Assembly (NCBI GenBank): GCA_013286575.1 | Contig: JABDFL010000004.1 | Coordinates: forward strand, 1-55,473 | Direction: 5' to 3' | Length of the DNA: 55,473 nt | Source: Candidatus Omnitrophota bacterium | Lineage (GTDB): Bacteria > Omnitrophota > Gorgyraeia > Zapsychrales > Fredricksoniimonadaceae | Part shown: positions 12,692 through 42,200 of the stretch, piece by piece | Layout: every line of letters starts with the position of its first letter | Numbering within the stretch: position 1 is the first letter of the stretch | Position numbers and translations under genes: made by a program | Notes under the pieces: model-generated | Seen by the model: only the letters and a program-made list of their open reading frames with translations | What the model was told of the DNA's origin: nothing | Databases searched by the model: none

Positions 12692-14103
12692 GCTCTTCGA
12701 TTCAATTAGTCGTGATCGGCGCCGGTCCCGGTGGTTATGCTGCGGCTTTTTTAGCGGCAGACTTAGGCATGGAAGTGGCCATCGTCGAAAAAGAAATCAA
12801 CCCCGGCGGCGTTTGCCTCTACCGCGGCTGCATCCCTTCCAAAGCGCTTTTGCATACAGCCAAAATCATCAGTGAAGCCAAACATGCCAAAGCCTTTGGC
12901 ATTGAATATAACGACCCTAAAATAGATATTAATAAACTGCGGGACTGGAAAAAATCGGTGGTCAGCAAATTGACCGGCGGTTTGGGCCAATTGGCCCGTG
13001 CGCGTAAAATTAAATATTTTCAGGGAGAAGCCGCTTTCGTCAACTCCAATACCCTGAAAATCAAAAAGACTGACGGTTCCACCGAAGAATTATCATTCCA
13101 GAAAGCTATTTTAGCGACGGGTTCACGCCCGTCAGTCATCCCTAATTTACCTAAATCTCCTGATATCTGGGATTCCACAGGAGCCCTGGAATTAGAGAAT
13201 ATTCCTGGAAATTTATTGGTGGTCGGCGGCGGTTATATCGGCATGGAATTAGGCACCGTCTATCATGAATTGGGCTCCAAGGTTTCGGTCGTTGAAATGA
13301 CCCCGGGACTTTTGCCTGGCGCTGACCGTGATTTGGCAGACATTCTTTACAAGCGTGTTAAAGGCTTGTTTGCCAAGATCATGCTCGAGACCAAGGTCGT
13401 TAAAATGGAGGCTTCCGCGAAAGGCGGCATCACCGTGACCTTTGCTGACAAAGAAGGAAAAGAATTTAAAGAAGATTACAATAAAGTCCTGGTTTCTATA
13501 GGCCGTCGTCCCAATTCAGAAAATCTTGGCCTGGAAAACACCAAGGTCAAGGTCACTCCCCGCGGCTTTGTTGAAGTCAACGATCAACGCCAAACCGCAG
13601 ACCCAAGTATTTATGCCATCGGTGATATCGCCGGTGACCCTATGCTGGCCCATAAAGCCTCACACGAAGGCCGAGTGGCCGTAGAGACAATTGCCGGGCA
13701 CAAGGTGGCTTGGGAGCCGCAGGCCATCCCAGCGGTGGTTTTTACCGACCCTGAAATCGCCTGGTGCGGAATGACTGAAATCGATGCTGCCAAGGCCGGA
13801 CGTGAAGTAACGGTTGTTAAATTCCCGTGGGCCGCCTCAGGCCGTGCCTTGACCCTTGACCGCACTGATGGATTGACCAAACTTCTCATTGATCCTAAAA
13901 CCGAACGTGTTCTGGGTGTGGGAATTGTCGGGGTTGGGGCCGGAGAAATGATCGCTGAAGGGGTGGTGGCCATTGAAATGGGCGCCGTTGCCAAGGATTT
14001 AGCACTTTCCATCCATCCTCACCCGACGCTGTCAGAAACCATCATGGAAGCTGCCGAAAGCTTCTTCGGCCAGAGCACGCATATCTACAAGCCTAAGAAG
14101 TAG
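12688..14103 (+). CDS. lpdA: dihydrolipoyl dehydrogenase E3
   Basis: 471 aa with the FAD motif VVIGAGPGGYAAAF, the redox disulfide GGVCLYRGCIPSK and a C-terminal HPHPTLSE. Its start forms an ATGA overlap with the aceF stop. Confidence 0.95.
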   Translation: MSSSIQLVVIGAGPGGYAAAFLAADLGMEVAIVEKEINPGGVCLYRGCIPSKALLHTAKIISEAKHAKAFGIEYNDPKIDINKLRDWKKSVVSKLTGGLGQLARARKIKYFQGEAAFVNSNTLKIKKTDGSTEELSFQKAILATGSRPSVIPNLPKSPDIWDSTGALELENIPGNLLVVGGGYIGMELGTVYHELGSKVSVVEMTPGLLPGADRDLADILYKRVKGLFAKIMLETKVVKMEASAKGGITVTFADKEGKEFKEDYNKVLVSIGRRPNSENLGLENTKVKVTPRGFVEVNDQRQTADPSIYAIGDIAGDPMLAHKASHEGRVAVETIAGHKVAWEPQAIPAVVFTDPEIAWCGMTEIDAAKAGREVTVVKFPWAASGRALTLDRTDGLTKLLIDPKTERVLGVGIVGVGAGEMIAEGVVAIEMGAVAKDLALSIHPHPTLSETIMEAAESFFGQSTHIYKPKK

Positions 14104-17100
14104 CCCCCAAGAATTTCCTCAAATTTAACATCGGCTCAATACTGATAATCACCGGGACAAAACCGGGGGCGTTTTGCAATTCCTGGAGCTGTGCCGGATC
14201 AATATGAAATTTAATCCCCTGGCCGTTGTTTTGGACAGTTAAAGCTTTGTCAGAAGTCAAATCAATCCCACCTTTATCCTCTACCTTCATCGCTACATCA
14301 GCCGGCTGCAGGTCTTTCTTTGAAAAAATATACATCTGTTTTAGACGCCCGGCTCTTAAATAATTCAAAGGAATGGAAGTATTTATTGTAGTAAACCCTC
14401 TTTCTTCAAATATTCTTGCAGACAGATGGACTTCTGAAAATCCTGTGATTAGCAACTTACCACCATCATTTAGAAAATCATGCACTTCTGATACTAAAGC
14501 CAATGCCTGCTCTCTGGAAGCCACTTCAAAATTAAAGCCCCCACCAATTGAGGTAATAATATCCATTTTAGGAACGTTATCTTCGCTGGAAAAAAGGCTT
14601 TCTCCCTCAAGTAAATTCTTTGGAATAATCTGAATGTACATCGAAAGCCTCTCTTTGAAATCCTTTCGAACAGCATCTAAAACATTTAAATTTTGTTCAT
14701 TGCCTTCTGCCAGCCAATAGTGCATACGGGGCATATCCCTGCCTTGAAAATGTCGCACTAAAGCCTGATGAAATTTCTCTATAAAAGACCCATCACCGGC
14801 AAAAATATCCATCATATTTATGTCTTTTTGTCCTTTTGCTGCCATTTCATCTACCAACGAAACAACTGCACTTATCGCCATTGGATGAATGAACTCATTA
14901 TAAGCTTGCTTGGGTCGGGTATTTCGGACGGACCAGTCATACCAATAAGACAAAGGCATTGAGCGGGGCGCAGATAAGAAAGTTTCATCTTCAAATTCAT
15001 TGCCTTTCAGGAGTTTAAGGATATCGTAAAGCCAAACTTCTTCTTCAAGATTAAGAGGAACATACCTCTGTAAATCGGTGTCATACCATACATCCCGTCT
15101 ATCCCCCCTAAATGCAGTACCTTCCATGGGATTGGATATTATCTCCTTTGATATCCTTACATCCTGTAATACCCGTATATCTGCCTGATCAAGCCCTACA
15201 GGCAGGGCATTAATTCTGATTCTCATATCAGGATATTGTGAACGCACCTTTAATAGCGGAGAAGGAAGTTCTCTATTGAGAGGATTCCGGGCAATACTTT
15301 CATTGATTTGCCTGACTTTTCCAGCAATGGCCTTAACACGGGCCCTATCATCCATTTCCGGATGAGGGTTGAACACTCCATTTACAAATGCCCCTTTAAT
15401 AATTGGACTCATCGCCGCATCCCGGATTGGCTTCTTTTGTACTGCTCCTGAATCAATGACGACCATTTCTCCATTAGGCAACATGCCTAAATTGCCACTG
15501 TCATAATTTCTATAACTAACATCAATTAATACATAGCCCTGTGCTTCTAGTTTAGCATTGAGACGCCGAACGCCCGCATTTGTAATACCAGCCGTAATCA
15601 CTTTAGGTAGTCGTTCAACTGTCCAACCGCCAATTTTCTTAGAAACGGTAGGCTGAAGGACTCCATCAATATCAGGCCTGGGAGTTTGGTCTTTATTAAA
15701 ACGAATGACATCACCTTCCGGTGTTTCAAGCACTAATGCTTGAGTGCCTGCGCCTAATCCTTTAGTTCCCAAAGGAATTTCAGCTAAAAGATCATTCGCA
15801 TACCGGCTCTTTAAAATATCTTGTGCCCGGGGCTCAGGAACTTCCATCGCCTCACCATTTCTTACTACGTTACTTTTTCTTTTTAAACCTGATAATAGAT
15901 TTCTTCCATACTCAATTCTTTGGCCTTGTAAATCTAATTGGATGGCCTGATCGGGAGCGTCTGCTTCCAATCTTCTTATTAAAGATGTGATCCTCTGTCG
16001 TTTTGACAAATCGTCTTTTAAATCTTCGTCTTGTGCTAATGCCTTCTTCAGGAATTGAATTAATGTCACACGCATATTCTTTTGTGTTTTCACAAGCGCC
16101 TGCCGTTTAGAACCAGGATCTTTAAAATGCGCAAACTCCCTTTCAAACTCATTAAGGTCCAAATGTTCACAAAAATTGATTAAACGGGCCAGCTTTTCAA
16201 TATCAAATCGGCCATTGAAATGCCTTAAGAATGTGCCTACGGGGTACTGGTAAAAATAATCCGTGCTGAAAGTTTTATCAAAAGATGTCAGCAAATCAAA
16301 TGCGACAAGATGTGCCTTGCCATTCACGGAGAATATTTCGTAATTATGATGCTTACGAAAATCAATGTCCGTATGTTGCATTAAATAGGAAAAAGCCACT
16401 AACTCTTCAAGTCCATAATGTTCTGAGGAAATGGTTTCGGCATATTCTTCAATAGGCTGTATGACCAGAAAAAGTAAACCCGAAGGACTTTTGAAACCAA
16501 ATTTTTTCTCCAGCGGTACAGCTTCAACGCCTTTTATTAACCTTGTATCCGGAACATAGACACCAATTTTGCGGGCAATACTATAAGATAAATTTTCATT
16601 AGCTGTATTATCTGTATTGTCATACGCTTTAACGTAATACTCTTCTCCTTCCGGGCCATTAAGCCTATACACTCTCCTGTCTTTGCTAATAAGTCTGGAT
16701 TTCTCAAAGAAATCTGAACTTAATTTATCAATATCAAATTTAGGCGCGGCATTCGTCGCCGCATCATTTCTCGCCCGTATTTTCCTTAAGATCACTCCTT
16801 CATGTAACATTGTCAGAAGATCGTATCTATGATCTTCAAAACTCACAGGGCCCTTATTTAAAAAAACCCTTCCTGCGATTCCAGTATTGATCATTACCTT
16901 TATTGTTTCAATGTCTCTGTCATCGGCATAGATAATGATCGACTTACCAGGATGCGATTTCCAATAGATAGCCAATGCTTTTTCCAATCTCTGCAAAGCC
17001 TTTGGCTGCAAATGCAGCATCGGCACTGAAAATGCTTTTGCACCTGCGTATTTTGCAAACACTCTCCTATTAACAGCATTGTTGGACTGACTCATCAGGT

Positions 17101-19273
17101 GCGTGCCGATTCCAAGATTATCCAAATCATCGGAAGGGAAAATCACATTCATCGCCGCATCACCTGCCCTCATCACCGCCACGCCGCCTGAGCTCATGGC
17201 ACGGTCCATACCGGCCATAGCAATTTGATTGTACCGCGCTAAATATTGATATTGGTAAACGTCAATCAGTAAATACTTCGCCCCTTGCCGCCTTGCTTGT
17301 TCTAAACAAATTTTTCCAAGAAAAATTTCATTCCCTATTAATTCATAATAAGACCTCATGTATTCATTGACTCGAACGGGCCAGGCTTGGGCTGCAAGAA
17401 AATCATCAAGCTCATCTTCACGATAATATTCTTTCGTATCAGATATTCTCTCCATGACTCTAAAAAAATAATATAACATCGTTTTCTCATCAGGATTTTC
17501 TTGAAAAAACCTTATTACCTCTTCTCTTAACCCTTCCATCCTGACCCTCAAATCCCTGATACTATCTTGAAAGTCAACGGATCTCTTAGAGCTCGCACTG
17601 ACTATATTTAAATTGACTTTGTCACGAACAAGGGCAAATATAGCAGGACCGTAAAGGGCCCTCATCAGCTTATCAGCAGCTTCCCGGGCATCAATACGGT
17701 TTGTGTAGGCTGCCGAAGCACCACTAAAGATCATTTCTTCTCTTTCTTTAAAGAGACGAATATCGTCCTTGATCTCTTTTTCCTCCATATTTACTGCGAT
17801 AATCAGTTTCCCGGTACTATTTTCTGCCCTCATGTTCTTTAAGAATTCCGGGTAGGAGGAATCGAATTTTAATGTATTAAGCCTATACATAAGTTCTTTG
17901 ACCTCCTCTACATCCGGTTTTTTATCGCTAAAAAACACCTTCTTGATTTTTTCGACCAGATAAGCGGGAACACCGGGCCAACGATATTCAGCAGTACCTT
18001 CGGCTGCTTTTACAGGAGTCGGCAGGAATGCCGTAGTGGCTATTGTAGCCGCTGCTAATCCTAAGGCTTCCCGCCTTGTCAACACAGTGTCCAATTGCAT
18101 TGTTAAACCGAGTAGGCCTGTTTTATTGTTCGGAGGAGTCGCGGTTGCTGTGATGGCCGGATCCAATAAGGTCACGCCGCCGGAGAAATATTGCCTCGGG
18201 ACGAGCTGCTGTGTTATGGGGTCTTGTTCTTCTTTAATGTAGTTATAAGCGCCTTTTTTGAAGGCTTGGAGGTAGCGTTGGTAAATGACTTGGGGGGTAA
18301 AACTTTTATACCCTATTCCTACCACCTTACTTTTGTTTTCGTATACTTGTGCCAGGATGCTTGCTTTGATTTTCTTTTTGTACCAGGTGGCGAGGATGAG
18401 AGAATTATAGACCTGCCGTAGTTGGGCGAAATTTTTGTCCTGGTTGACTTCTTTGGTGAGTTCGGGGATGACTACTTCACGGACGACCTGGGAGCCGAGG
18501 GAACTGATACTGTTAAAAGATTGCTTCGCTGCGCTCGCAATGACACTGCTTTGCAATGACGAAGGAATTGGGCCTTTTGACACATTCTTGCTAAACGCTA
18601 AATAATCCTGCTCAAGCATGACTTTTAATTTGCTTTCGATGATATAGGCGGTGCCGGCTTGGGCATTTTCGTAGACTACGGCTTTTTCGGGGACTATCCA
18701 GACTTTGTTAAAAGTGTTGACCGGAATATTTGTTGTGCCGAATTTCTTTTGGGCTTCCTCATAAATCCGTTTCCAGAATTTCCTGCCTATTTCTCCTTCA
18801 GGATAAATTAAGCTGGCGGTGATTTGTTTGAGCATATAATCTTCAGCCAACAGGTCACGGCCCATTTCGGTTAGGCCGAAGCTTTGCGGAATGATGCGAT
18901 TTTTTTCGTAGGGGCTTAAGTTTACCCAGAGATCTTTTTCAGGGATGGTGAGGCTGGCGAGGAAGTATTTTATTAGTTTGGTGGATTCTTCTTTGATAAA
19001 AGATTGCTTCGTCGCTTCGGCTCCTCGCAATGACACCGAGGACAAATCACCTTTGTCTAAAATAAAATCGAAACGGAAAGGATTGTCGGGATGGATTTTG
19101 AGGCCTTTTAGTATGGGAGGATTGAATTCCGGGCTTAGGGGGACCATTATCCCTGGTTTTGGCAATAGGAATTCACCTGCCTGGGCCGTTGGTATAGGGC
19201 CAAACGTATTAGCTAAAAAAGCAATAATTAGCCCAAGAGCTATATTAGTTCTTAAATTTAGATACTTTCTCAT
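14093..19273 (-). CDS. giant exoprotein A (1726 aa): signal peptide, conserved N-module, unknown regions, two kinase-like domains, SAM methyltransferase, conserved C-module
   Basis: An uninterrupted 5.2-kb ORF starting at ATG 19271-19273. The signal peptide is IALGLIIAFLANTFGPIPTAQA/GEF. The N- and C-modules are shared with 24032..29623 and 32693..36358. The MTase motif I is MDIFAGDGSF. Confidence 0.9.
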   Translation of the reverse strand: MRKYLNLRTNIALGLIIAFLANTFGPIPTAQAGEFLLPKPGIMVPLSPEFNPPILKGLKIHPDNPFRFDFILDKGDLSSVSLRGAEATKQSFIKEESTKLIKYFLASLTIPEKDLWVNLSPYEKNRIIPQSFGLTEMGRDLLAEDYMLKQITASLIYPEGEIGRKFWKRIYEEAQKKFGTTNIPVNTFNKVWIVPEKAVVYENAQAGTAYIIESKLKVMLEQDYLAFSKNVSKGPIPSSLQSSVIASAAKQSFNSISSLGSQVVREVVIPELTKEVNQDKNFAQLRQVYNSLILATWYKKKIKASILAQVYENKSKVVGIGYKSFTPQVIYQRYLQAFKKGAYNYIKEEQDPITQQLVPRQYFSGGVTLLDPAITATATPPNNKTGLLGLTMQLDTVLTRREALGLAAATIATTAFLPTPVKAAEGTAEYRWPGVPAYLVEKIKKVFFSDKKPDVEEVKELMYRLNTLKFDSSYPEFLKNMRAENSTGKLIIAVNMEEKEIKDDIRLFKEREEMIFSGASAAYTNRIDAREAADKLMRALYGPAIFALVRDKVNLNIVSASSKRSVDFQDSIRDLRVRMEGLREEVIRFFQENPDEKTMLYYFFRVMERISDTKEYYREDELDDFLAAQAWPVRVNEYMRSYYELIGNEIFLGKICLEQARRQGAKYLLIDVYQYQYLARYNQIAMAGMDRAMSSGGVAVMRAGDAAMNVIFPSDDLDNLGIGTHLMSQSNNAVNRRVFAKYAGAKAFSVPMLHLQPKALQRLEKALAIYWKSHPGKSIIIYADDRDIETIKVMINTGIAGRVFLNKGPVSFEDHRYDLLTMLHEGVILRKIRARNDAATNAAPKFDIDKLSSDFFEKSRLISKDRRVYRLNGPEGEEYYVKAYDNTDNTANENLSYSIARKIGVYVPDTRLIKGVEAVPLEKKFGFKSPSGLLFLVIQPIEEYAETISSEHYGLEELVAFSYLMQHTDIDFRKHHNYEIFSVNGKAHLVAFDLLTSFDKTFSTDYFYQYPVGTFLRHFNGRFDIEKLARLINFCEHLDLNEFEREFAHFKDPGSKRQALVKTQKNMRVTLIQFLKKALAQDEDLKDDLSKRQRITSLIRRLEADAPDQAIQLDLQGQRIEYGRNLLSGLKRKSNVVRNGEAMEVPEPRAQDILKSRYANDLLAEIPLGTKGLGAGTQALVLETPEGDVIRFNKDQTPRPDIDGVLQPTVSKKIGGWTVERLPKVITAGITNAGVRRLNAKLEAQGYVLIDVSYRNYDSGNLGMLPNGEMVVIDSGAVQKKPIRDAAMSPIIKGAFVNGVFNPHPEMDDRARVKAIAGKVRQINESIARNPLNRELPSPLLKVRSQYPDMRIRINALPVGLDQADIRVLQDVRISKEIISNPMEGTAFRGDRRDVWYDTDLQRYVPLNLEEEVWLYDILKLLKGNEFEDETFLSAPRSMPLSYWYDWSVRNTRPKQAYNEFIHPMAISAVVSLVDEMAAKGQKDINMMDIFAGDGSFIEKFHQALVRHFQGRDMPRMHYWLAEGNEQNLNVLDAVRKDFKERLSMYIQIIPKNLLEGESLFSSEDNVPKMDIITSIGGGFNFEVASREQALALVSEVHDFLNDGGKLLITGFSEVHLSARIFEERGFTTINTSIPLNYLRAGRLKQMYIFSKKDLQPADVAMKVEDKGGIDLTSDKALTVQNNGQGIKFHIDPAQLQELQNAPGFVPVIISIEPMLNLRKFLGATS
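18516..18565. repeat. family-1 mini-repeat copy inside giant gene A (codons ~238-253)
   Basis: aaaagattgcttcgctgcgctcgcaatgacactgctttgcaatgacgaagg has the same AGATTGC...CTCGCAATGACAC termini as the other copies. Confidence 0.65.
18999..19036. repeat. family-1 mini-repeat copy inside giant gene A (codons ~79-92)
   Basis: aaagattgcttcgtcgcttcggctcctcgcaatgacac is nearly identical to the aceF right arm. Confidence 0.7.
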
Positions 19274-23011: not shown

Positions 23012-23565
23012 TGAAGGAATTCAGCAATAGTAAAAATGGATTTCAAAGGCACATGATACTTGGCCAAGGCCTCCTGGGCGCCTTCACCCCGGTCGATGAT
23101 ACAGATGGCTTGTTTAATTTTGATATTCATCTTCTGCAGCACTTCAATCGATTCCACAAAAGCCTTGCCGGTGGTTGCCACATCATCAATGATCACCACA
23201 GACCCGGCTTCCGGAAGTAACGGGCCTTCGACCTGCTGCTGCTTGCCGTGCGCTTTGGGCTGCTTGCGGATGATAAAGGTGTTGATAGGACGGCCTGCCT
23301 GGTGGCTTAAAGAGGCAATGGCCCCCACCATAGGGTCAGCGCCCAGGGTAGGGCCGCCGATGGCATCGGGCATATCTTTGCTGATCATATCCAGCATAAT
23401 GCGCGCGGTCAAATACGCTCCCGGGGCAGAAAGGGTCACGAGACGGGCATCGAGGTAAAAGTTACTCTCTTTTCCCGATGATAAAATAAATTTACCCTTG
23501 GAGAAAGCCTGTGTCTTCAGGAGGCGGAATAATTCTTTTCTGTCATTGTCTATAGGTGTGTGCAT
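23008..23565 (-). CDS. pyrE: orotate phosphoribosyltransferase
   Basis: 185 aa with GKFILSSGKESNFYLD and the PRPP loop VVIIDDVATTGKA. Confidence 0.9.
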   Translation of the reverse strand: MHTPIDNDRKELFRLLKTQAFSKGKFILSSGKESNFYLDARLVTLSAPGAYLTARIMLDMISKDMPDAIGGPTLGADPMVGAIASLSHQAGRPINTFIIRKQPKAHGKQQQVEGPLLPEAGSVVIIDDVATTGKAFVESIEVLQKMNIKIKQAICIIDRGEGAQEALAKYHVPLKSIFTIAEFLQ

Positions 23566-23861
23566 TAAAATTGAGGGAGCTCCAGGTTGCGGCCATGGAT
23601 CTCGACTAAGAGCAACATGCGGAATTTTAACAGGGCTTTGTAGTCTTTGTATTCTTTAGGACTGAAACCGGATGTGGTATGAAAGGAAGAGCTCGCCTGG
23701 ATTTCCACCAGCGTATTTTCATAGGTATCAATGAGCTCATCATCGGTGAGCTTGGTGATAGCCGATTTATCTAAAATGATCACGTCTGATGGGTACTCAG
23801 CCATGACCAGGGGTGTGAAAGATAAAACCATCATCATCGCTAAAGCAAATTTTTTATGCAT
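23565..23861 (-). CDS. small secreted hypothetical protein
   Basis: 98 aa with the signal peptide FALAMMMVLSFTPLVMA/EY. Its stop overlaps the pyrE start by 1 nt. I recognise no family. Confidence 0.5.
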   Translation of the reverse strand: MHKKFALAMMMVLSFTPLVMAEYPSDVIILDKSAITKLTDDELIDTYENTLVEIQASSSFHTTSGFSPKEYKDYKALLKFRMLLLVEIHGRNLELPQF

Positions 23862-24031
23862 ATGCCCCCTGGTTAATTGGTCCTTTAAAATCTCTCCTGA
23901 GTCGATTAATTATATGGTAACACTATGTTGTCTGTCAAGTTATGTGGAGCTATCTTTGAAAATCATCTTTTGAATACAAAAACGCCCTTTAAGTTACTGT
24001 TTAGGTAGAAATTCGCTATAAAAACTTAATC

Positions 24032-27000
24032 TTATTTAAGTGTAGTACTTTGGGTCAAACCAAGAAATTGGGAAAGACTCTTAAGTGGCTGGATATTAAT
24101 AATCACCGGCACAAAACCTGGAGCATTTTGAAGTTGCTGAAGCATGGCTGGGTCTAAATGAAATCTAATTTCACTTCCACTGTTTTGTGTCTGTAAATTC
24201 ATATTGGCAGGGGTTAGGTCGATACCCCCTTTAGCAGTCATGGCTCCATCTGTTAGCTCTTTCCAAGCATCGTGACTTGTTACCTCAATCCTCGGAAATT
24301 TAACCATTGCATCTATTCGATTGGCCAGTTGATCAATAGGTTCGGTATCTACCTTATTATCTAAAAAAGGCTTAATAACGTAAGAAGAAGCACCACCAAA
24401 AATATCGCTTTTATCATCGACAAGCAGTCGATATTTAAACAAACCAATCGGTTTATACTCATTGTACTTCTCACTATACTTTTTGAATAAACTTTGATAA
24501 TACTCCTTTCTAACGCTATTTGATACTCCTGGATTCCAGGCTGATAGTCCATTATCTCCTGTAATAATCAATTCAAATAAACCATACATTTCACTGTTGG
24601 ATAATAAATATTTTCTGACAGCTTTTTTGGGTGAACGGGTCCACAAAACAAGCCGATATCCCATTGTCTTCAATTTATTCAATTCATCAATGATGCCGGG
24701 TCTTATAATTGATACGGAACCAAGAAACGTCCTTCTCTTATCGAGAATTGTATGATCCATATCAAAAACGACGGTAGGCCTCTCTCTAGACATAGTCCGT
24801 TCATTCTTAATAAACTGTTCTTCATAAACACTCCCATCGATGAAGCCATTTTGATCAATGACATTTTTCTTGCCTTGGGTTGAACTATCCGTGCCGGCCT
24901 CTTCATTAATTGAATCTACTTTAAGAAGTTCTAAATCACGGCCATGTATCAAGACTACCGTGGAAACACTCGGGTACCTTTCAAAATAATAACCATCAAA
25001 ATGATGCATCATAAGATATACAGGCAAAAGATCTTCATGAGCTCCGCCAAAATTCAACTGAACCCACTTTTCATATTCTTTTTCACCAACGCCGTTAAGA
25101 TGAAAGAGTCTTTGCTGTCTTTGAATCCCCAAGGTTAAGACGTAGCTACCTGAATTCCTCATTGTTTTTATGGTAGCGTAATTAAAGGCTTTACGGTAAG
25201 AAGTTGTCAAAAACACACCCATGTGAGTATAAATATTGTTTTTGGCGCCAAATATTGAAGGCATTAATTCGCCCCTATCATTTATACGTTCAAGCTCTTC
25301 TCCGTCAACGCCTCTATAAAGTACTTCTGTGGCCTCATGAAATTCTTTTAAATCAAATCCAAAGAGTTTTTTTATAAAACGTGATGCCTTCCCTATAAGA
25401 AAAAAATACCATCTAACAGTGGTCTCTGAAAAGTCAGTTAAATAAAGATCAATAAAAGTATTGGCTCTTTGTATTTTTCTTGAAAACCAATTTATAAAAT
25501 AACTGGTGATTTTTTCTTGAATGTTTCCGTCACGATTCTCAGCAACACCCCAATCCTCTATGAATATCTTGGAAAAATACTCCGCCAACTGAGAATTCTC
25601 TAGCCTGATTCCCAATTCCTGATTACCATAATACGCCCTGGGTGTCAAATCTGAACTCCCTGTAATTACTGTATTATCAGCTATAAGCAACTTACGATGA
25701 TCAAAAAGACCTTTGGGGTTGCTCCATCTAACAGGCACACTGGAACTCTGTAATTTATCGTAGGCTGGCAAACTTCTAACGTAGGGAATATATAATGGAA
25801 ACAACTGAAATTTTTTCTCTACCCCATTTAGCAAAACCCTAATATCTATTTTGGGATCATTCCTGAGTTTCATCTTAAGAACTTGGACGATAAGATCATC
25901 GTTCAAATGCCATTGTGAAATATATATCCTCTTTTTTGCTTTAAGAATTTCCTGGATATAAGCAAAACGTGTATTATCTTCAATAGAACGTTCTCGCAAT
26001 ATTTGTCCCCAAGGATTCTTGGTTGCTCTAAAAGCATATCTTTGACCATGTGCCCAATACCAATTCTCCCAGAATATGTCCTCAAATTCTTTCAGGCCAT
26101 GAATAGAATGAACGATTAATCCTGCTGTTCTTCCTCTAAAGAAGCTTAAATTATCACAACCTATATAAACATATTGTCCATCGATTATTATCAATTTTTT
26201 ATGATCATCTGGAGAAGGTGCTGCCATCACAAATTGACGGTTTCTTTCTGGCCGATAAAAAATAATCTGCAGATTATTGATTTCTTCTTTTTGTATCGAT
26301 TGAATTAATTCTGATTGTTTCTTAGTGAGTCTTTTGACATTCTTACCTATAATGACTTTAACCTCTATTCCTTCTATAGCCTTTTGTTTTAATAAATCCC
26401 ATACGGAATTATCATGGAATGAATACATATCTATGAGTATGGACCTACGCGCGTCGGTCACCAATTGTCTAAGTATGCGCCCCCCATCAAAAGTCTCACC
26501 TATGGGCAATATGTGCACACCTTGATGCTCAATCCACCTAAGCCGATATTCTTCTTGTGCAGGGCTTTTATCATTAGACACCATTGCTTCATCAGGTTTT
26601 AAGTTCTGAACTGAGATGGCTGAAGTTTCATCAAAAAAATAAAATCGTGAACGGGAATTCATATTAGCTCTTGCTTCTTCCCTACCAAGTATTCTGCCGT
26701 CCGTTGAATCATAAATATTCCCAGAAAAATGATCTAACAAAGCATTGGCCTCAAAAAACATCAATCCGTCTGAGATGTCTTGTCCCTTTTCGTGTAAAAT
26801 CTGGTTTAATGGTTTTTGGGATATTAATTCTTTGATGAGTTCTTTATTCTCTTCAGTTTTAGCCTGCCCTTTAATTACGGCCCCCAACATACTTTCCGCC
26901 ATTATTAATATCAACCGTTGGACCCTTCTTCCCAAATCTGATTGGGTAATAAGGCCTTCTCTTAACAATAAAGCCCATTCTTCAACAACATTATTCGCAA

Positions 27001-29623
27001 ATATACTATCCAAAATAGTTTTGTTTATATCGTTTAAAACCGCTGTCTCAAAATGTGCTTTCTTTGTGGAAGAATAGATAAATACTGCATGACGAACCCA
27101 TTTATTTACCAACGGTGGTCTCATTAGCCTTTGAACAATTCCTATCTCTCTAAAAAGTGTTTCACTTGTTTCATTAATCCTCACTTCCAGTTCCGTATCT
27201 TTTTTAGGCACAGATTCCGATAACGTCACAATGATCACTTCCTTGGCTCCAGCATCCAATAATTTTCTCCGGATTTCCGTGGAAGTAAAACCCGTCCCCC
27301 AATGATCGTCCACAAGCAGTATCGTTTTCCCTCTTATTTGATCTAAATCTTTAATTTCATAAGCATCAATCACATTTAAAGCCTTGTTTAACAGACCTTT
27401 AACTAACTTCTGTTCTCTTCTCCGATCTATTTTTACAACAGATGAATTACCAACTGAAATATGGGATTTTTCTGATAAAACCATTAACAAAGGATCTAAT
27501 TGATTTTGCTGACCGTTTAATCGCGGGACACCAATAATTAAGTCTGGTTTAAGATTTTGAACACTCAAAGCTCGAATCACTTTTTCTGAAAATTTATCAG
27601 CCAATTGAAGCATTGCTTCAACATTCTTTTTAGTTTCAAAATATTGTATTGAAAAATTATCATAAATAAAGTTTGGATGGCTATGTGGAAACAAAACATT
27701 GAAGGTAATTACTGGGTGTTTGTAAGAAGTCAGTGACAAATTACTTTCAGCGGTGTTCAAATTCGCTATGCCATATTTCAACAATTCCGTAACCCAATAA
27801 TATCCAACGTCAGCTGAAACACTTTTCCCGGTAAACATAAAAGAAGGGCTTTCTTCATAACTGCTTTTGGCAGCCGACGAAAGATAATTAAAAACACCTG
27901 TTTTGACCAAGTCATCCTGTGTCTCAAAATATATTCTCTGGATCAACGTTCGGATAACTTCTAATACTTCTTCATGTTTTTGCGTTTCTACTTCATATTG
28001 TTTTAAAAGACTTGCTAAGGTATCAAGCTTTGATTCCACCGGCTCCGTTCCTGGCATCACACTATTTAAAATGGCTTGATACCTTTGCGCTGTCTCACTT
28101 AAACCTCTTATACGTAACCTAAAAACTTCAAAAGCAACTTTTAAAGCCAAATATTCTCTATTAAAAAGACCCTGCCCACGATTTTGAGCGATCTTGTAAG
28201 CTTCTTTGGAAATATAATCAATACGTCCCTTACTAACAATCCAATAAAATGAATCACTTGCCGGATTTAAAACAAACTCAGCTGGGACAACCCCTCTCCC
28301 TCTATCTGTAGCGATATAATCTGTGAAAAAAATGGGCTGATAATAAATTTTATCTCCCGATTTTTTAATTCTTATTAAACCAAACTCTTTACTAATAACT
28401 AACTGTCCATTTTGTAATTGACTATATAAAACAATACCATCTCTATACTCCAATGATGCACTCATCGCTGGGTCAATTCTGACATTAACTATTTCACTAT
28501 CATTACCGGAAGGCATGTTCCATTGATGCAAAATTATCATGGCCGAATCAATTTTCAAGATTGTCATATTAAGCAATACCCCACCCGAAAAATATTTCCT
28601 TGGAATAGTCTCTTGAGTCACAGGGTCTTGTTCTTCTTTAATATAGTTATAAACACCTTTTTTAAACGCCTGTAAATACCGTTGATAAATTTTTTGCGTT
28701 TCTTGCGGGTCATCAATATTCACTCCAGCCACCTTCTTCTTATCGGCATACACCTGCTCTAGAATACAGTCCTTAATTTTATTTTTGTACCAAGTGGCTA
28801 AGATGAGACTGTTATAAATTTGGCGTAATTGAGAGAAATTTTTGTTCTCGTTAACTTCTTTTGTTAATTCGGGGATGACGATTTCGCGGACGATTTGGGA
28901 GCCTAAAGCACTCGTGTTCTGGATTCCCGCTTTCGCAGGAATGACATTGTGAGAGAGTGCTAGGTAATCTTGCTCAAGCATTACCTTCAATTTACTTTCA
29001 ACAACATACGCCGTACCAGCCTTAGCATTCTCATATACCACAGCTTTTTCTGGCACAATCCAAACTTTATTAAATGTGTTGACGGGGATATTCGTTGTAC
29101 CAAATCTTTTCGTAACTTCTTCGTAAATACGTTTCCAAAATTTCTTACCAATCTCCCCTTCAGGATAGATTAGGCTGGCCGTTACCTGCTTGAGCATATA
29201 ATCTTCGGCCAGTAAATCCCTGCCCATCTCAGTCTGGCCAAATGATTCTGGGACTATGCGGTTTTTTTCGTAAGGACTTAGATTGACCCAGAGGTCTTTT
29301 TCAGGAATGGTTAAAGAGGCAAGGAAATACTTAATCAACCTACTAGATTCATCTTTGAGAGCGTCATTAGATAATTGGCTGTCACCTTTATCTAAGATAA
29401 AATCAAAACGAAATGGATTGTCAGGATGGACTTTGATTCCTTTAAGGACTGGCGGATTAAATACAGGACTCAAATACACCATTACCCCAGGCGCAGGCAG
29501 ACGAAATTCATCTGCCTTGACTTGAGGTATAGGACCAATTGTATTAGCAAAAAATACCAATAAAATGATAAAAGATTGCCCCGGCCTAAAAAACAGGCCT
29601 CGCAATGACATATAACTCCGCAT
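24032..29623 (-). CDS. giant exoprotein B (1863 aa): signal peptide, conserved N-module, ComF-like PRTase, double-HKD phospholipase D, ART-like, HAD/FCP1-like phosphatase, conserved C-module
   Basis: An uninterrupted 5.6-kb ORF with ATG at 29621-29623 and a second ATG at 29609-29611. Motifs are listed in the findings. The N- and C-modules are shared with the other two giant genes. Confidence 0.9.
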   Translation of the reverse strand: MRSYMSLRGLFFRPGQSFIILLVFFANTIGPIPQVKADEFRLPAPGVMVYLSPVFNPPVLKGIKVHPDNPFRFDFILDKGDSQLSNDALKDESSRLIKYFLASLTIPEKDLWVNLSPYEKNRIVPESFGQTEMGRDLLAEDYMLKQVTASLIYPEGEIGKKFWKRIYEEVTKRFGTTNIPVNTFNKVWIVPEKAVVYENAKAGTAYVVESKLKVMLEQDYLALSHNVIPAKAGIQNTSALGSQIVREIVIPELTKEVNENKNFSQLRQIYNSLILATWYKNKIKDCILEQVYADKKKVAGVNIDDPQETQKIYQRYLQAFKKGVYNYIKEEQDPVTQETIPRKYFSGGVLLNMTILKIDSAMIILHQWNMPSGNDSEIVNVRIDPAMSASLEYRDGIVLYSQLQNGQLVISKEFGLIRIKKSGDKIYYQPIFFTDYIATDRGRGVVPAEFVLNPASDSFYWIVSKGRIDYISKEAYKIAQNRGQGLFNREYLALKVAFEVFRLRIRGLSETAQRYQAILNSVMPGTEPVESKLDTLASLLKQYEVETQKHEEVLEVIRTLIQRIYFETQDDLVKTGVFNYLSSAAKSSYEESPSFMFTGKSVSADVGYYWVTELLKYGIANLNTAESNLSLTSYKHPVITFNVLFPHSHPNFIYDNFSIQYFETKKNVEAMLQLADKFSEKVIRALSVQNLKPDLIIGVPRLNGQQNQLDPLLMVLSEKSHISVGNSSVVKIDRRREQKLVKGLLNKALNVIDAYEIKDLDQIRGKTILLVDDHWGTGFTSTEIRRKLLDAGAKEVIIVTLSESVPKKDTELEVRINETSETLFREIGIVQRLMRPPLVNKWVRHAVFIYSSTKKAHFETAVLNDINKTILDSIFANNVVEEWALLLREGLITQSDLGRRVQRLILIMAESMLGAVIKGQAKTEENKELIKELISQKPLNQILHEKGQDISDGLMFFEANALLDHFSGNIYDSTDGRILGREEARANMNSRSRFYFFDETSAISVQNLKPDEAMVSNDKSPAQEEYRLRWIEHQGVHILPIGETFDGGRILRQLVTDARRSILIDMYSFHDNSVWDLLKQKAIEGIEVKVIIGKNVKRLTKKQSELIQSIQKEEINNLQIIFYRPERNRQFVMAAPSPDDHKKLIIIDGQYVYIGCDNLSFFRGRTAGLIVHSIHGLKEFEDIFWENWYWAHGQRYAFRATKNPWGQILRERSIEDNTRFAYIQEILKAKKRIYISQWHLNDDLIVQVLKMKLRNDPKIDIRVLLNGVEKKFQLFPLYIPYVRSLPAYDKLQSSSVPVRWSNPKGLFDHRKLLIADNTVITGSSDLTPRAYYGNQELGIRLENSQLAEYFSKIFIEDWGVAENRDGNIQEKITSYFINWFSRKIQRANTFIDLYLTDFSETTVRWYFFLIGKASRFIKKLFGFDLKEFHEATEVLYRGVDGEELERINDRGELMPSIFGAKNNIYTHMGVFLTTSYRKAFNYATIKTMRNSGSYVLTLGIQRQQRLFHLNGVGEKEYEKWVQLNFGGAHEDLLPVYLMMHHFDGYYFERYPSVSTVVLIHGRDLELLKVDSINEEAGTDSSTQGKKNVIDQNGFIDGSVYEEQFIKNERTMSRERPTVVFDMDHTILDKRRTFLGSVSIIRPGIIDELNKLKTMGYRLVLWTRSPKKAVRKYLLSNSEMYGLFELIITGDNGLSAWNPGVSNSVRKEYYQSLFKKYSEKYNEYKPIGLFKYRLLVDDKSDIFGGASSYVIKPFLDNKVDTEPIDQLANRIDAMVKFPRIEVTSHDAWKELTDGAMTAKGGIDLTPANMNLQTQNSGSEIRFHLDPAMLQQLQNAPGFVPVIINIQPLKSLSQFLGLTQSTTLK
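28921..28947. repeat. family-2 hairpin mini-repeat inside giant gene B (codons 227-235)
   Basis: ggattcccgctttcgcaggaatgacat has an 8-bp stem ATTCCCGC/GCAGGAAT (one mismatch) with a 4-nt loop. Confidence 0.7.
29571..29610. repeat. family-1-like variant at the 5' end of giant gene B
   Basis: aaagattgcc-ccggcctaaaaaacaggcc-tcgcaatgaca has conserved termini. Its interior is replaced by a GGCCT/AGGCC hairpin. Confidence 0.45.
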
Positions 29624-29731
29624 AAGTGAAGTATAAACTATCTATATACTTTCTGCCACTTTTAGACCTTTTGAACCTTAAAAACTGACTAGAAGGAAGG
29701 CTGGTTTGTTTGGTTGTAGTTTTATAATTAT

Positions 29732-30442
29732 GTGATGTACAATATAAATATGGTAACATACGTCATGCTTCAAGCCTTTTTACAGGGAGCTTTTGAACTT
29801 ATTTTCCCTGACAATTGCCTGCTCTGCCGGCAATTCCTTAATAGCCGCCACCAGCGACAGCTATGCCCTCATTGCCTGGGCTCCCTGGCCTTTAATCCAA
29901 ACCCCTTTAGCCGGCAATCAACATCCGGCTCATTTGCTTTTGACCAGGCATGGTCGGTTTGTCTTTATAATGAACCAGCCCAAAAGCTGCTCCATGCTTT
30001 TAAATACAATTCCAAAACATCCCTCAGTAAAACCTTTGTCCCTTTAATGATTGATTTCATCGACCGCCATCATGTTCCCGTGCAGCTGTTTGACTTGATC
30101 GCTCCCATCCCCCTGCATCCGGTGAGACTGCGGGAACGGGGGTACAATCAATCTGCTCTTTTGAGTCTTGCCTTAAGCCGGCACTACGGAATTTCACATT
30201 CAGAGGACCTGTTGATACGCCAGAAAATGACATCTAGCCAGACGGAATTAGGGGCAAAACAACGCTGGACAAATATGGAAGGGGCTTTTAGAATAAAAAA
30301 TCCGTCGGAAGTTGAAGGTAAAAGTGTCGTGCTTGTTGATGACCTTTTTACCACAGGCGCTACCGTGCACAGCGCCGCGGAAACCTTAAAATCAGCCGGT
30401 GCTGCCAGGGTTGGAGCGTTGACTTTCAGTATAACTATTTAA
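29732..30442 (+). CDS. comF: ComF family protein (zinc-ribbon plus phosphoribosyltransferase domain)
   Basis: Cys pairs CLLC...CPHC, PIPLHPVRLRERGYNQS, and the PRT loop VVLVDDLFTTGATV. The true start may be an internal Met (MLQAF...). Confidence 0.75.
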   Translation: MMYNINMVTYVMLQAFLQGAFELIFPDNCLLCRQFLNSRHQRQLCPHCLGSLAFNPNPFSRQSTSGSFAFDQAWSVCLYNEPAQKLLHAFKYNSKTSLSKTFVPLMIDFIDRHHVPVQLFDLIAPIPLHPVRLRERGYNQSALLSLALSRHYGISHSEDLLIRQKMTSSQTELGAKQRWTNMEGAFRIKNPSEVEGKSVVLVDDLFTTGATVHSAAETLKSAGAARVGALTFSITI

Positions 30443-32692: not shown

Positions 32693-35600
32693 TTATTGGA
32701 TAAAATTCAGAAGATCGGCAATGGGGGTAATGCCGACAATAACTCCACGCAGGCCCCGTGAGTTTAAAACCATGTCTTCGAGGGCCTTATCGCTGACAAC
32801 ATCCGTCATGACGCGACCTTGACGGTCCATAGGAATGTTGCTGAGCTTGATACCGCCGGGAATATTCATGGCTGTATCAGAAACCCCCACTACTAAAGAT
32901 TGACCGGTCTTTTCAACTTTCTCGAGCTCTTGGACAAAATCAAACAGCTTGTCCATTGCTCTCTTAGTTAGCTTTATTTTGCCTCGTGTCTCAGGCTCCT
33001 GTTTAAGCGCATTAAGTTCTTCTCTCAAACTTTCTTTCAAGGGAGCTAATACGGGACTTTCACCATAAAGATAATTAAGATGAGATAATATGTCTGCACT
33101 CCCCGGACGATTGTGAAATTCCAAGGGGGTGATGTCACCGAATGCCTCAAGGAAAGGACTTAACCCATTGCCATTCTTATATACTTCTTCACCCTTATTA
33201 TCCTTCCAAACAAATGGCCCTCCAATTTCATTTAGCAAATACAATGCTTCATCACGGTCAATTGATAGTGGCGGGGTTTCCCCAGCTTTAATCTCTATTG
33301 GTGGGGGTTCATGTTCCCAATTTTCTTCTTTATCCCACTGTTCTTCAAAATGGGCACGTCTTTTTTCAAACTCTGCAATGGGATTGGCACTGCCTCCATT
33401 TAAAACGTCGAAAGCAATACCATATTCATTAATCATACGATAAATGGATACCTTTTGATGAGCGGCCCGAAAAGCCTCTTCCATCACTTGATATCGTTGT
33501 CCATTTCCAGGATTTCGATACATGTCAACGAATTCTTGCATATATGCGGCAAACTGCCGCCGACCTTCTTCATAAAATCGGGTCAGTGCCCATTGTTCCT
33601 TGTGTTGAAACGCCCATATAATTCTGCGAAATTCAGCACTATGTTCACCATTGCGTTTCGCATGTTCAAAATCAAAAGGATTTACTAACCATCCACTAAC
33701 TCCGGGCTTGATCCATTCCAATGGGCCTCCAGTCGCCGTAGCAATAGATGGGTGGCCATTTAAAGCCGCTCGTTCATCACTTGTACCAGATGCCTCCCGG
33801 GTCAGCCATGGCATGACCAACCAGCAATCAGTTGCTGATGTTGCAAATTTCATGAATTCTGTTCCTGTTGTTCTTTCAATGATTACAAATTTTCCTTTAA
33901 TATCAGGTTCCAGGGACAGCTGTGTTAATGCACTCACCCACTCAGGGGCTACACCATCAAGAGCTTCGCCAGCCAATAAAAGGTTTGCTCCGAGCCCCTT
34001 CCTTGGCCCTAATGGCGAGTCGTACACTTTATTTGGGTCTCCCACAATCCACCTGACCATAGGAATGAACAGGGCCTGAGATTTATATTCTACCATCCTT
34101 CGAACAGCGCCAAATAATGGCCGCTTGTGAATGTCAGCAAAACCCTCCAATCCCATACCTCTCAAATATTCATTTAGCTTGTATTTCTGGTTTGATCCTA
34201 TATCAAACAGATCCTTCCCGGTAATATTTGCTATCCCTTTTCTTGAAATGAGTCTGTTAAGATCATCAGAGCGCCACAGGGACGGCAAAGATCCATTTTG
34301 GATACCGGTTGTTTTGTCCGCAAAACCGGGCAAAACTGCTTCACGGGTAACATCAGCATGCTCCAACGAAACACCATTGATCATATGCGCATGATGGCCC
34401 ATAGCTCCAGCTGCATTCACTTGCCCGTTATATATAATATCGTCTCGCACAAGATCAGCACCTACCAAGTCTTTTAGCTTACCAACGTCCTTCCAAACAG
34501 GTAATGCCGCTGCTTCAGGTGTATGAGTTGTCATTAAAAACTTGGTTTCAGCAAAAATGCTCCGTTCACCTTTTTGTCTTTTTGCATCAATATCGTTCAA
34601 TACGGCCGTCATGACAAAAATTAATTGTGGCTCGCTTAATCGTAATATGCGAGGAGCAATGCCTAAAGCATAACAAAGTTCAACATAAGCCTTACCCATA
34701 AAACCATATTGTATGACTTGTTCGTCGCCTCCCGGGTACAACCTTTTAAACAGGTTGCGTTGTTTGATACCAAATACAGGAGTCCCATTAGCATCGACCC
34801 AGTAGATATAAGCACGTTCTTTTTTCCCTTTGAAATCCACATCAATGGAAAGCGCATGGTTATTTCCTTTTCCATCTTGAACAATAACAGGATGGACCCC
34901 TTCTTGGTGGTCCCAATCAACTTCGACACCATTCTTGTCATAGCTATAAAGCGGCATAGCGCCTGCGGCATTCCAATTTGGCAATAACTCGCTATAGGCT
35001 TGGTAGGTTTCTCCCGCCAGAAAACCAAGCCCTCCTTTGCCTAACGCTAATTGAGCCGTCCCCTTAATAGCAGATAAGAAAGCTTCAAGAGTTACATCAG
35101 TGACAACCCCGCTCCCTTCTGGATTTTGTAAATTGGCAATAACCCCCTCAGGGCCGTTTATAATCCGCAATCGTTTCCCGTGATAAAGCGCCTTGGGTGG
35201 CTCACTTGAAGTAACGCTTCGAATATCAACCCGCATATCATATATTTGTTCATCTCCTAAGACATCTAAACTCGTAACCATTGCGGGTTCACGTAGAATT
35301 TGTTGATCTACAAAACCGCCGGAGAAATATTTCCTGGGAACAGGCTGCTGGCCTGACCGGGTCATCTCTTCTTTAATATAGCTGAAGACACCCTTCTTAT
35401 AGGCAGACAGGTATTGATGGTAGATACGGTCTTTATTCTTTGGATCGCTGAGATCAATACCCGCGACTTTATTACGCCCGGAATAAACTTTATTGAGGAC
35501 CGATTTTTTAAAAACGTCCTGATACCATTGGGCCAGGATGAGGGCGTACAATATTTGCCTTAACGGCGCAAAATTCTTGCCTTCATTGACTTCATTCTCT

Positions 35601-36358
35601 ATGGCAGGGAGAACAACTTCACGTAAGACCTGCTTGGATAGATTCCTGACAGTATTATTTTTCTGCGCATTGATGTTCTCGCCCAATTTGTTTAGGGCCA
35701 AATAATCCTCTTCAAGCATGACCTTAAGATGCGCATTGACAATGTAAACCGTATTGCCCTTTTCAAATACCGACGCTTTCTCAGGAAGGATCCATACCTT
35801 ATTAAATACATTGACCGGGACCTGGGTAACGCCGAATTTCCGGTAAGCTTGCGTATACACTTTGTTCCAAAATGTTTTACCTAAATTGCTCTCCGGATAA
35901 ATAAGGGAAGCCGTGATTTGTTTGAGCATGTAGTCTTCTGCCAAAAGGTCACGGCCAAGTTCTGTTTTGATCAAGGTATCCGGGATAATGTGGTTTTTCT
36001 CGACCGGGGAAAGATTGACCCAAAGATCCTTTTCAGGTGTCGCCAAAGAAGCCAGGAAATAATTAACCATGCGCTGGGACACTTTCTTAAAATTGTCAGC
36101 GCTTAATCTTTCATCGCCGGGATCTACGATAAAATCAAACATGAAGGGATTTTCAGGATGGACTTTCAGGCCCTTGATCAAAACAGGCTTAAAAGCCGGA
36201 CTTAAACTTACTCTGGTTCCCGGTTTCGGTAAGAAAAATGACAAGCCGGATATATCAACAGATTGGGCATGGGCAGGCGGCAGGAATATTGATGTTCCCA
36301 AAAAACTGATTGAGACCCAAAGGGCCAAAAAGCGTCGGAAAATGATGATCGGTCTCAC
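32693..36358 (-). CDS. giant exoprotein C (1221 aa): signal peptide, conserved N-module, alpha-glucan phosphorylase-like domain, helical region, divergent C-module
   Basis: An uninterrupted 3.7-kb ORF with the signal peptide FLALWVSISFLGTSIFLPPAHA/QS. GT35-like strings include GGLGFLAGE, THTPEAA, INGVSLEH, GIQNGS and REASGTSDERAALNG. Confidence 0.9.
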   Translation of the reverse strand: MRPIIIFRRFLALWVSISFLGTSIFLPPAHAQSVDISGLSFFLPKPGTRVSLSPAFKPVLIKGLKVHPENPFMFDFIVDPGDERLSADNFKKVSQRMVNYFLASLATPEKDLWVNLSPVEKNHIIPDTLIKTELGRDLLAEDYMLKQITASLIYPESNLGKTFWNKVYTQAYRKFGVTQVPVNVFNKVWILPEKASVFEKGNTVYIVNAHLKVMLEEDYLALNKLGENINAQKNNTVRNLSKQVLREVVLPAIENEVNEGKNFAPLRQILYALILAQWYQDVFKKSVLNKVYSGRNKVAGIDLSDPKNKDRIYHQYLSAYKKGVFSYIKEEMTRSGQQPVPRKYFSGGFVDQQILREPAMVTSLDVLGDEQIYDMRVDIRSVTSSEPPKALYHGKRLRIINGPEGVIANLQNPEGSGVVTDVTLEAFLSAIKGTAQLALGKGGLGFLAGETYQAYSELLPNWNAAGAMPLYSYDKNGVEVDWDHQEGVHPVIVQDGKGNNHALSIDVDFKGKKERAYIYWVDANGTPVFGIKQRNLFKRLYPGGDEQVIQYGFMGKAYVELCYALGIAPRILRLSEPQLIFVMTAVLNDIDAKRQKGERSIFAETKFLMTTHTPEAAALPVWKDVGKLKDLVGADLVRDDIIYNGQVNAAGAMGHHAHMINGVSLEHADVTREAVLPGFADKTTGIQNGSLPSLWRSDDLNRLISRKGIANITGKDLFDIGSNQKYKLNEYLRGMGLEGFADIHKRPLFGAVRRMVEYKSQALFIPMVRWIVGDPNKVYDSPLGPRKGLGANLLLAGEALDGVAPEWVSALTQLSLEPDIKGKFVIIERTTGTEFMKFATSATDCWLVMPWLTREASGTSDERAALNGHPSIATATGGPLEWIKPGVSGWLVNPFDFEHAKRNGEHSAEFRRIIWAFQHKEQWALTRFYEEGRRQFAAYMQEFVDMYRNPGNGQRYQVMEEAFRAAHQKVSIYRMINEYGIAFDVLNGGSANPIAEFEKRRAHFEEQWDKEENWEHEPPPIEIKAGETPPLSIDRDEALYLLNEIGGPFVWKDNKGEEVYKNGNGLSPFLEAFGDITPLEFHNRPGSADILSHLNYLYGESPVLAPLKESLREELNALKQEPETRGKIKLTKRAMDKLFDFVQELEKVEKTGQSLVVGVSDTAMNIPGGIKLSNIPMDRQGRVMTDVVSDKALEDMVLNSRGLRGVIVGITPIADLLNFIQ

Positions 36359-42191: not shown

Positions 42192-42200
42192 ATATGGTCT

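Follow-up and report, generated by a model that had tools for sequence, protein, structure and literature searches.

What kind of protein is encoded by a 1863-codon open reading frame (ORF), here called gene B, that strings several dissimilar enzyme domains together behind a predicted signal peptide? Gene B lies on contig JABDFL010000004.1 of a Candidatus Omnitrophota bacterium (GenBank assembly GCA_013286575.1), of which the whole stretch analyzed, 55,473 nucleotides from position 1 to 55,473, is referred to below as the window. Omnitrophota are uncultured, ultra-small and probably predatory or parasitic bacteria with very large multi-enzyme proteins that are unexplained. An epibiotic, predatory lifestyle has been proposed for them, and their giant multi-enzyme proteins have been described and suspected of being cleaved, at sites not known (PMC10066038; 10.1101/2023.11.21.568195; 10.64898/2026.06.07.730766). 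A preliminary description, made from the letters of the sequence, had read B as a giant protein of at least four independent toxin- or effector-like cassettes. As judged by sequence comparison, B belongs to a very large, previously undescribed Omnitrophota family in which a fixed, predictedly exported frame holds freely swapped enzyme modules. The layout of B and the positions of its two paralogues in the window are as follows, with residue numbers referring to the encoded protein.

24032..29623, minus strand: gene B, 1863 aa, with an ATG start, uninterrupted, GC 0.368, only 2 cysteines (C286, C1156)
29513..29623, minus strand: Sec-type signal peptide, residues 1-37, with three arginines, a hydrophobic core, and VKA followed by DE
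28574..29512, minus strand: conserved, family-defining N-domain, residues 38-350, ending with an invariant YFSGG
28442..28573, minus strand: linker, residues 351-394, holding DSAM (359-362) and DPAM (384-387)
26594..28441, minus strand: payload module 1, residues 395-1010, a phosphoribosyltransferase (PRTase) core between flanks without an identified family
27134..27643, minus strand: type I PRTase core, residues 661-830, with the phosphoribosyl pyrophosphate (PRPP) loop ILLVDDHWGTGFT
26582..26593, minus strand: DEAM motif, residues 1011-1014, at the border of modules 1 and 2
25469..26548, minus strand: phospholipase D (PLD)-superfamily domain, residues 1026-1385, with HKD motifs H1141/K1143/D1148 and H1309/K1311/D1316
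24884..25468, minus strand: domain X, the segment earlier read as an ADP-ribosyltransferase (ART), residues 1386-1580, an orphan domain always fused behind the PLD domain
24254..24883, minus strand: capless haloacid dehalogenase (HAD) phosphatase module, residues 1581-1790, with D1621xD1623xT1625, T1662 and D1736-D1737
24035..24253, minus strand: C-domain, DGAM (1792), then residues 1795-1863 reading GGIDL...DPAM...PGFVPVIINIQP...FLG
14093..19273, minus strand: paralogue A, 1726 aa, with N- and C-domains of the B type and an unrelated payload
32693..36358, minus strand: paralogue C, 1221 aa, with an N-domain of the B type and a diverged C-domain

The reading frame is present as described earlier, and all 10 of the 10 motifs quoted at that time were found, each once and at the residue numbers given for them. 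The first ~350 residues of B are 69% identical to A and 50% identical to C, and the last ~65 residues are clearly common to A and weakly to C (29% in the C-domain alignment); between these N- and C-terminal parts, nothing is common to A, B and C. A database search yielded more than 3800 clusters, with matches confined to the first 18-25% of B and identities of 47-83%. The proteins in these N-domain clusters range from 1000 to 3200 aa and have Pfam payloads that are unrelated, among them methyltransferases, GNAT, REC, HATPase_c, HEAT, PPDK_N, M48, ABC1, MutS, GGDEF, PGK, deaminases and metallophosphatases. Scanning one genome per species gave at least 590 family loci; the best 80 of them all lie in Omnitrophota metagenome-assembled genomes (MAGs), a few of which are labelled 'uncultured Planctomycetales', and some genomes have at least 5-8 copies. 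At the other end of the protein, GGID(L/F) stands ~67 aa before the C-terminus in 117 of 120 homologues. We defined this frame family by an AxA signal peptide, an N-domain with WVNLSPYE, FNKVWIVP and YFSGG, the stretch GGID(L/F)...PGF.PVI ~67 aa from the end, cysteine below 0.2% and DxAM linkers, and B agrees with the definition in all of these features. The N-domain had no sequence match in Pfam, NCBIfam or PDB, and its AlphaFold2 (AF2) model (predicted local distance difference test, pLDDT, 62) had no fold match in the PDB, the best E being 0.45; likewise, the C-domain (GGIDL...PGFVPVII) had no meaningful match in Pfam or PDB. A TPS domain was considered for the N-domain and dropped, the model being mixed alpha/beta and no profile matching.

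Within a variable loop of the B N-domain, we noticed a 27-nt palindrome, GTCATTCCTGCGAAAGCGGGAATCCAG (stem, GAAA loop, stem; 28919-28945, minus strand), which is in frame and encodes VIPAKAGIQ. The ORF 40689..42227 has a second copy at its 5' end (42199-42225, minus strand), and homologues have apparent translations of the same palindrome that differ in frame and orientation, with VIPAKAGIQ occurring in loops of the N-domain and MDSRFRGND in loops of the C-domain. This distribution suggests a small mobile hairpin element that is tolerated within family genes.

The frame also carries features of export. Residues 17-35 are the sole strongly hydrophobic stretch of B, with no further transmembrane segment, and in 98 of 112 homologues the conserved start of the mature protein has AxA or VxA in front of it. 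Cysteine makes up 0.12% of residues in 120 homologues, 0.11-0.16% in the three family genes of the window vs. ~1.1% in their neighbours, and 0.15% in 88 independent family ORFs vs. 1.18% in 636 neighbouring ORFs. Cysteine depletion is typical of substrates that cross the envelope unfolded, by the autotransporter, two-partner or type I routes, and on this basis we take it to suggest that family members cross the envelope as well. A C-terminal signal of the sortase/exosortase type was dropped from consideration, as B does not have the transmembrane helix and basic tail.

The modules of the family are typically connected by linkers with a four-residue motif, D-x-A-M, at their end. D-x-A-M is 14-23 times over-represented across the family and stands at the top of its motif class; in central/payload regions D.AM was seen 180 times vs. 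12.9 expected, and in an independent set 161 times vs. 11 expected, the figure for neighbours being 21 vs. 19.3. Moreover, where homology blocks end in the interior of a protein, a DxAM is found no more than 10 aa away in 29.7% of cases vs. 4.6% for random positions (6.5x, p 2e-10). In B itself, DSAM and DPAM stand behind the N-domain, DEAM between modules 1 and 2, and DGAM ahead of the C-domain. Within the motif, Asp codons are at background use, Ala codons lean mildly towards GCC/GCG (71% vs. 52%), and no upstream nucleotide is conserved. Given codon use near background and no upstream nucleotide signal, we take DxAM to be selected at the protein level; a DNA-level origin, be it an internal ribosome-binding site with a start codon or a recombination signal, was rejected on the same two grounds. 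We infer that, for the separation or docking of modules, the DxAM junctions are the best candidate sites. One further idea is that the invariant YFSGG and GGID could be candidates for double-glycine (C39) processing.

Local searches resolved the payload of B into three transferable blocks, each of which is separately present in other giant proteins: 1) residues 395-1020, the PRTase unit, recur in P0002, P0036 and P0072, where the unit is interrupted by an extra HAD-like insert; 2) residues 1009-1580, the PLD domain with domain X, recur in P0121 and P0122, whose ends differ; 3) residues 1581-1788, the HAD module, recur in P0003 and P0008. In a set of 5.8 billion proteins, there was no whole-length match to B, with coverage never above 30-40% of B, and a word-indexed homologue search with the whole payload as query returned only 3 proteins. 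Of the four independent cassettes proposed at the outset, three are real enzyme units with intact catalytic motifs, but the ART cassette fails and the payload consists of three shuffled modules.

For the PRTase, we looked for a PRPP loop of four hydrophobic residues, two acidic residues, any three residues and TGxT. In B, this loop (ILLVDDHWGTGFT) is intact and aligns with that of HPRT, and Pfam Pribosyltran matches residues 670-802 at 27.0 bits (cutoff 26.3). The PADLOC models for PsyrT (1.4e-10) and ShosT (1.1e-6) also match, more strongly than ComF, and the closest stand-alone relative is the PRTase end of a RecQ-PRTase protein, P0123. A ComF-like PRTase unit, as proposed earlier, is therefore upheld, as is its likeness to the ComF protein encoded next door (28% identity over 94 aa, pairwise E 2e-8), which at this level of identity is real but old. 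ComF proper was rejected for B, since TIGR00201 gave 26.3 bits vs. a cutoff of 233.55 and B, unlike the neighbouring ComF, has no DZR domain. Although PsyrT/RqlH, ShosT and ComF are the best-matching models for the PRTase core with its intact PRPP loop, B differs from them in lacking a RecQ helicase, the zinc ribbon of ComF and an antitoxin partner, and its scores are far under the equivalog cutoffs. ShosT has been characterised by experiment as a PRTase toxin and acts by disrupting purine metabolism (PMC11961720).

For the PLD domain, Pfam PLDc_2 matches in two stretches (E 6.6e-29; 100.8 bits, cutoff 27) and PLDc matches as well (5.3e-08), both above the gathering score, and both HxK(x)4D motifs are intact, so that the two HKD motifs and the PLD/nuclease superfamily named earlier were borne out, but the nucleotide ranges quoted for the motifs were 3-6 nt off, the true ones being 26150-26203 and 25649-25699. 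A three-sequence PLD profile found PLD1 (1e-8), Nuc (1.7e-7), MitoPLD/Zucchini and NucT in the PDB, and the nearest entries of NCBIfam and PADLOC are DrmC-type enzymes (PADLOC DrmC 5.9e-17; NCBIfam 47 bits vs. an equivalog cutoff of 133); the best matches are thus a mixture of nucleases (DrmC, Nuc, NucT, Zucchini) and lipases (PLD1). With the PRTase nearest to the toxin PRTases PsyrT and ShosT and the PLD nearest to the DrmC/Nuc type, "toxin/effector-like" is a fair description of these modules.

Behind the PLD domain, the preliminary description had placed an ART with an R-S-E pattern at residues ~1430-1530. In an exhaustive search with HMMER, 1.84 billion representatives yielded just 2 relatives of this domain X, both joined directly to the same PLD, and the word-indexed homologue search found none. 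R1437 (YRG) and S1475 (F-x-T-x-S) are the same in all three sequences, whereas the relatives have R and K at the positions of E1514 and E1516; P0122 is without any ExE, and the E-R-E of P0121 is one residue out of register with the E-K-E of B. Profile searches found no ART family for domain X in Pfam at E<=10 or in PDB, and the AF2 model from the three sequences (pLDDT 40.6) was unusable, with the segment predicted, at low confidence, as helical rather than a strand. These findings speak against the ART cassette. A RES domain was likewise dropped, as there was no Pfam match. Because domain X follows the same PLD directly in both relatives, we describe it as an orphan domain that is accessory to the PLD; it is the conserved C-terminal partner of the PLD, the two travelling as one module.

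PLD plus X occupies residues 297-851 of P0121 and 226-794 of P0122, which are giant proteins of another family. Their N-terminus is a different one, with a start resembling a signal peptide; they have HD and DUF2934 domains, their cysteine content is normal and DxAM is nearly absent from them. Cysteine in PLD-X homologues outside the frame family is at 0.7-1.0%, i.e. normal, and several of their cysteine positions are replaced in B.

The HAD module was less readily recognized when B was scored alone, being under the Pfam and NCBIfam cutoffs (HAD-IIIC 29.4 bits vs. 35.75). However, a profile of B with two homologous cassettes gave a match of E 1.5e-7 to baculovirus 38K/AC98 in the PDB, in which FDMDHT, LVLWT and LLVDD of B (motifs I, II and IV) are aligned with those of 38K as DxDxT, LVLW(T/S) and LVDD. 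This match places the module in the HAD superfamily and supports a capless, protein-phosphatase-like HAD. The earlier assignment to HAD phosphatases, by DxDxT, LVLWTRS and LLVDDKSD, accordingly stands. Although 38K is the best solved-structure match, B differs from it and from FCP/SCP-like HADs in that the best family matches, NCBIfam 'viral_ppase' and HAD-IIIC, are under curated cutoffs and Pfam NIF (FCP1) has no match to B at E<=1. We count 38K/viral_ppase and HAD-IIIC, the nearest families, as FCP/SCP-like.

We then consider how stable these genes are in their loci, for which the following features are needed.

23923..29747: B-carrying segment of 5825 bp
29748..29758, minus strand: left 11-bp direct repeat TGTTACCATAT, junction of the segment at the 5' end of comF
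23912..23922, minus strand: right 11-bp direct repeat TGTTACCATAT, the other junction
23565..23861, minus strand: small exported ORF downstream of B, with a signal peptide and its own consensus promoter
29732..30442, plus strand: comF ORF, neighbour of B and divergent from it, with GTG as its listed start

In a related MAG (locus L013), with 78-90% identity in the neighbouring proteins, the small exported ORF comes immediately after lptF-comF, then PRTase and maf, with no giant gene in between. The 11-mer TGTTACCATAT is found at both ends of the B-carrying segment, with the empty site (L013 2180-2200) aligned to both junctions, and the G+C content at third codon positions (GC3) of B is 0.27-0.39 vs. 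0.574 for housekeeping genes of the window. The gene thus shows a presence/absence polymorphism, and its codon composition is foreign; the empty comF/sp98 site can be read either as an insertion in this genome or as a deletion in L013. As for terminal inverted repeats of the 5.8-kb segment, inspection by eye gave a weak match at 11/15 positions, nothing convincing. At the paralogue A locus, which adjoins pyruvate dehydrogenase E3/E2 genes in the window and in L013, three related genomes have members of 1726 aa (window 14093-19273), 911 aa (L013 7974-10709) and 2540 aa (L012 7986-15608) that share only the N-domain (65-68%) and the C-domain, the payloads being unrelated. A perfect sigma-70 consensus (TTGACA, 18 nt, TATAAT; 23909-23938, minus strand) lies upstream of the ORF 23565..23861 and spans the right junction, with its -35 in the B-carrying segment and its -10 in sequence common to the empty site.

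What, then, might B do? We lean towards reading it as a Sec-exported, nearly cysteine-free, soluble, modular multi-enzyme/multi-effector protein of a predatory or parasitic bacterium. We postulate that B would leave the cytoplasm by Sec with cleavage of its signal peptide, that the constant frame of N- and C-domains would direct further export or delivery, that the payload enzymes would act in or on another cell, one that serves the epibiotic Omnitrophota bacterium as host or prey, and that DxAM would be the place where modules are processed or docked. Action in or on another cell is surmised because the payload would require substrates of the cytoplasm (PRPP/purines; phosphodiester lipids or nucleic acids; phosphorylated proteins or metabolites); this holds for a PRTase, whose PRPP the cytoplasm alone supplies, and probably for the phosphatase. 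By analogy, B may be functionally comparable to MARTX or polymorphic toxins. Several observations weigh against this reading: 1) no known secretion/translocation domain was found in the N- or C-domain by Pfam, PDB or fold search; 2) no neighbouring gene is conserved across the 80 family loci, the most recurrent one occurring in 6/80, so that neither a secretion partner nor an immunity gene emerges; 3) the ORF downstream of B, with its own promoter and signal peptide, is unlike an immunity gene; 4) family payloads include receiver, histidine-kinase ATPase, HTH and HEAT-repeat domains, unusual for toxins; 5) Pfam support for the HAD and PRTase is marginal with B scored alone. A bolder version, in which N-domain, C-domain and DxAM form a phylum-wide effector-building and delivery platform with DxAM as the processing sites that release enzymes in or on prey, is in our view doubtful, albeit worth keeping in mind.

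Among the rivals, we regard it as unlikely that B is an envelope or periplasmic enzyme of the producer itself, remodelling phospholipid or envelope, with the N-domain anchoring it to the cell's own surface. A signal peptide without a further transmembrane segment and the lipid-modifying members of the PLD superfamily would fit, as would the surface location proposed for giant Omnitrophota proteins (PMC10066038), but the PRTase would find no PRPP outside the cytoplasm; moreover, the absence of B from the syntenic site of a close relative and the unrelated payloads at the A locus are unlike housekeeping, and the GC3 of B is aberrant. Four independent toxin cassettes of the polymorphic-toxin kind, including an R-S-E ART at ~1430-1530, are rather improbable. 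The invariant YRG and F-x-T-x-S, and an E-R-E in P0121 only one residue off, speak for this reading, and the spacing of the ART-like motifs may resemble that of C3-like ARTs; however, the replacement of both glutamates in the relatives, the failure of the Pfam and PDB searches to find an ART, the helical prediction (low confidence) and the behaviour of the segment as an accessory domain of the PLD all count against an ART, and no immunity gene adjoins B.

It is highly improbable that B is an intracellular anti-phage defence protein combining a DrmC/DISARM-like PLD with a PsyrT/ShosT-like PRTase. The NCBIfam DrmC match and the PADLOC matches to DrmC, PsyrT and ShosT given above invite the idea, but the NCBIfam match reached only 47 bits, far under the equivalog cutoff of 133, neither DISARM partner genes nor an antitoxin were present among the scanned neighbouring ORFs, the RecQ helicase part of PsyrT is absent, and the signal peptide and cysteine depletion point outside the cytoplasm. 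Least probable of all, in our estimation, is a decaying mosaic, a functionless domain graveyard left by rampant recombination. The unique architecture, the aberrant GC3 and the in-frame short palindromic insert are what such decay might leave, but an open frame of 1863 codons in 37% G+C DNA seems very unlikely to persist without selection, the catalytic motifs are intact in all three enzymes, and the purging of cysteine across the family, recruited modules included, argues for ongoing selection.

Compared with known systems, the closest described relatives of B are the Omnitrophota giant multi-enzyme proteins, and B fails membership in both MARTX and polymorphic toxins. With the giants (West-Roberts et al. 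2023; Nielsen & Lui 2026; preprints) B shares the phylum, the signal peptide and strings of normally cytoplasmic enzyme/signalling domains, those common to the giants and the frame family being methyltransferase, HATPase_c, GNAT, HAD, REC and PPDK_N, and both pose the question of cleavage; however, the giants have at least 10,000-20,000 aa and mostly many transmembrane helices, whereas B has 1.9 kaa, is predicted to be soluble after its signal peptide and has a conserved frame. In term searches of both giant-protein preprints and the Omnitrophota genome survey, which covered the C-domain, cysteine depletion and DxAM only in part, a shared N-domain or cleavage points went unmentioned, and no description of the frame family, its cysteine avoidance or a DxAM code was found in searchable papers.

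MARTX resembles the B family in being one polypeptide with conserved ends around a variable string of effector enzymes that differs by strain. MARTX proteins are secreted by a type I system without a Sec signal peptide, and contain repeats rich in glycine as well as a cysteine protease domain with cleavage after Leu; neither the repeats nor the protease were detected in B with Pfam and NCBIfam, and the likeness is one of logic, not of sequence. Polymorphic toxins (CdiA/TpsA, Rhs, MafB) have in common with the B family a conserved N-terminal, export-associated region after the signal peptide, hypervariable recombining distal parts and many paralogues per genome. In contrast to them, B has no TPS, Rhs/YD or haemagglutinin repeats by Pfam, its variability is internal with a conserved C-terminus, and family members have no conserved transporter or immunity gene beside them. 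B was accordingly rejected as a polymorphic toxin system, the ORF downstream being a small exported protein with its own promoter and no known secretion domain being present.

B thus exposes a compact, abundant version of the giant architecture, with a constant frame, cysteine avoidance, a four-residue boundary mark and turnover of modules and whole genes among near relatives. Should the frame serve for delivery, the family would be a catalogue of thousands of candidate inter-bacterial effectors, unusual ones (PRTase, PLD, protein-phosphatase-like) included, and the N-domain would be the handle for finding them all. If the platform reading were true, DxAM would be the first concrete cleavage/junction code for the Omnitrophota multi-enzyme giants.

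Some observations on neighbouring genes may be added. The start of comF is probably misplaced, for the conserved protein begins with MVTYVMLQAF (ATG 29750) or MLQAF (ATG 29765), as in L013, and 6-11 codons at the start of the ORF as listed are thus probably untranslated. Between paralogues A and B, the minus strand encodes a GT2 glycosyltransferase fused with a class I methyltransferase (19290-20777) and a Maf-DUF192 fusion (22025-23011). Finally, a secretin gene (Pfam Secretin and Secretin_N_2) lies at 1743-3569 on the minus strand, followed downstream by the ORFs 565-1746 and 71-568, which have no Pfam matches; this secretin could be the outer-membrane channel of a type II secretion system or a type IV pilus.

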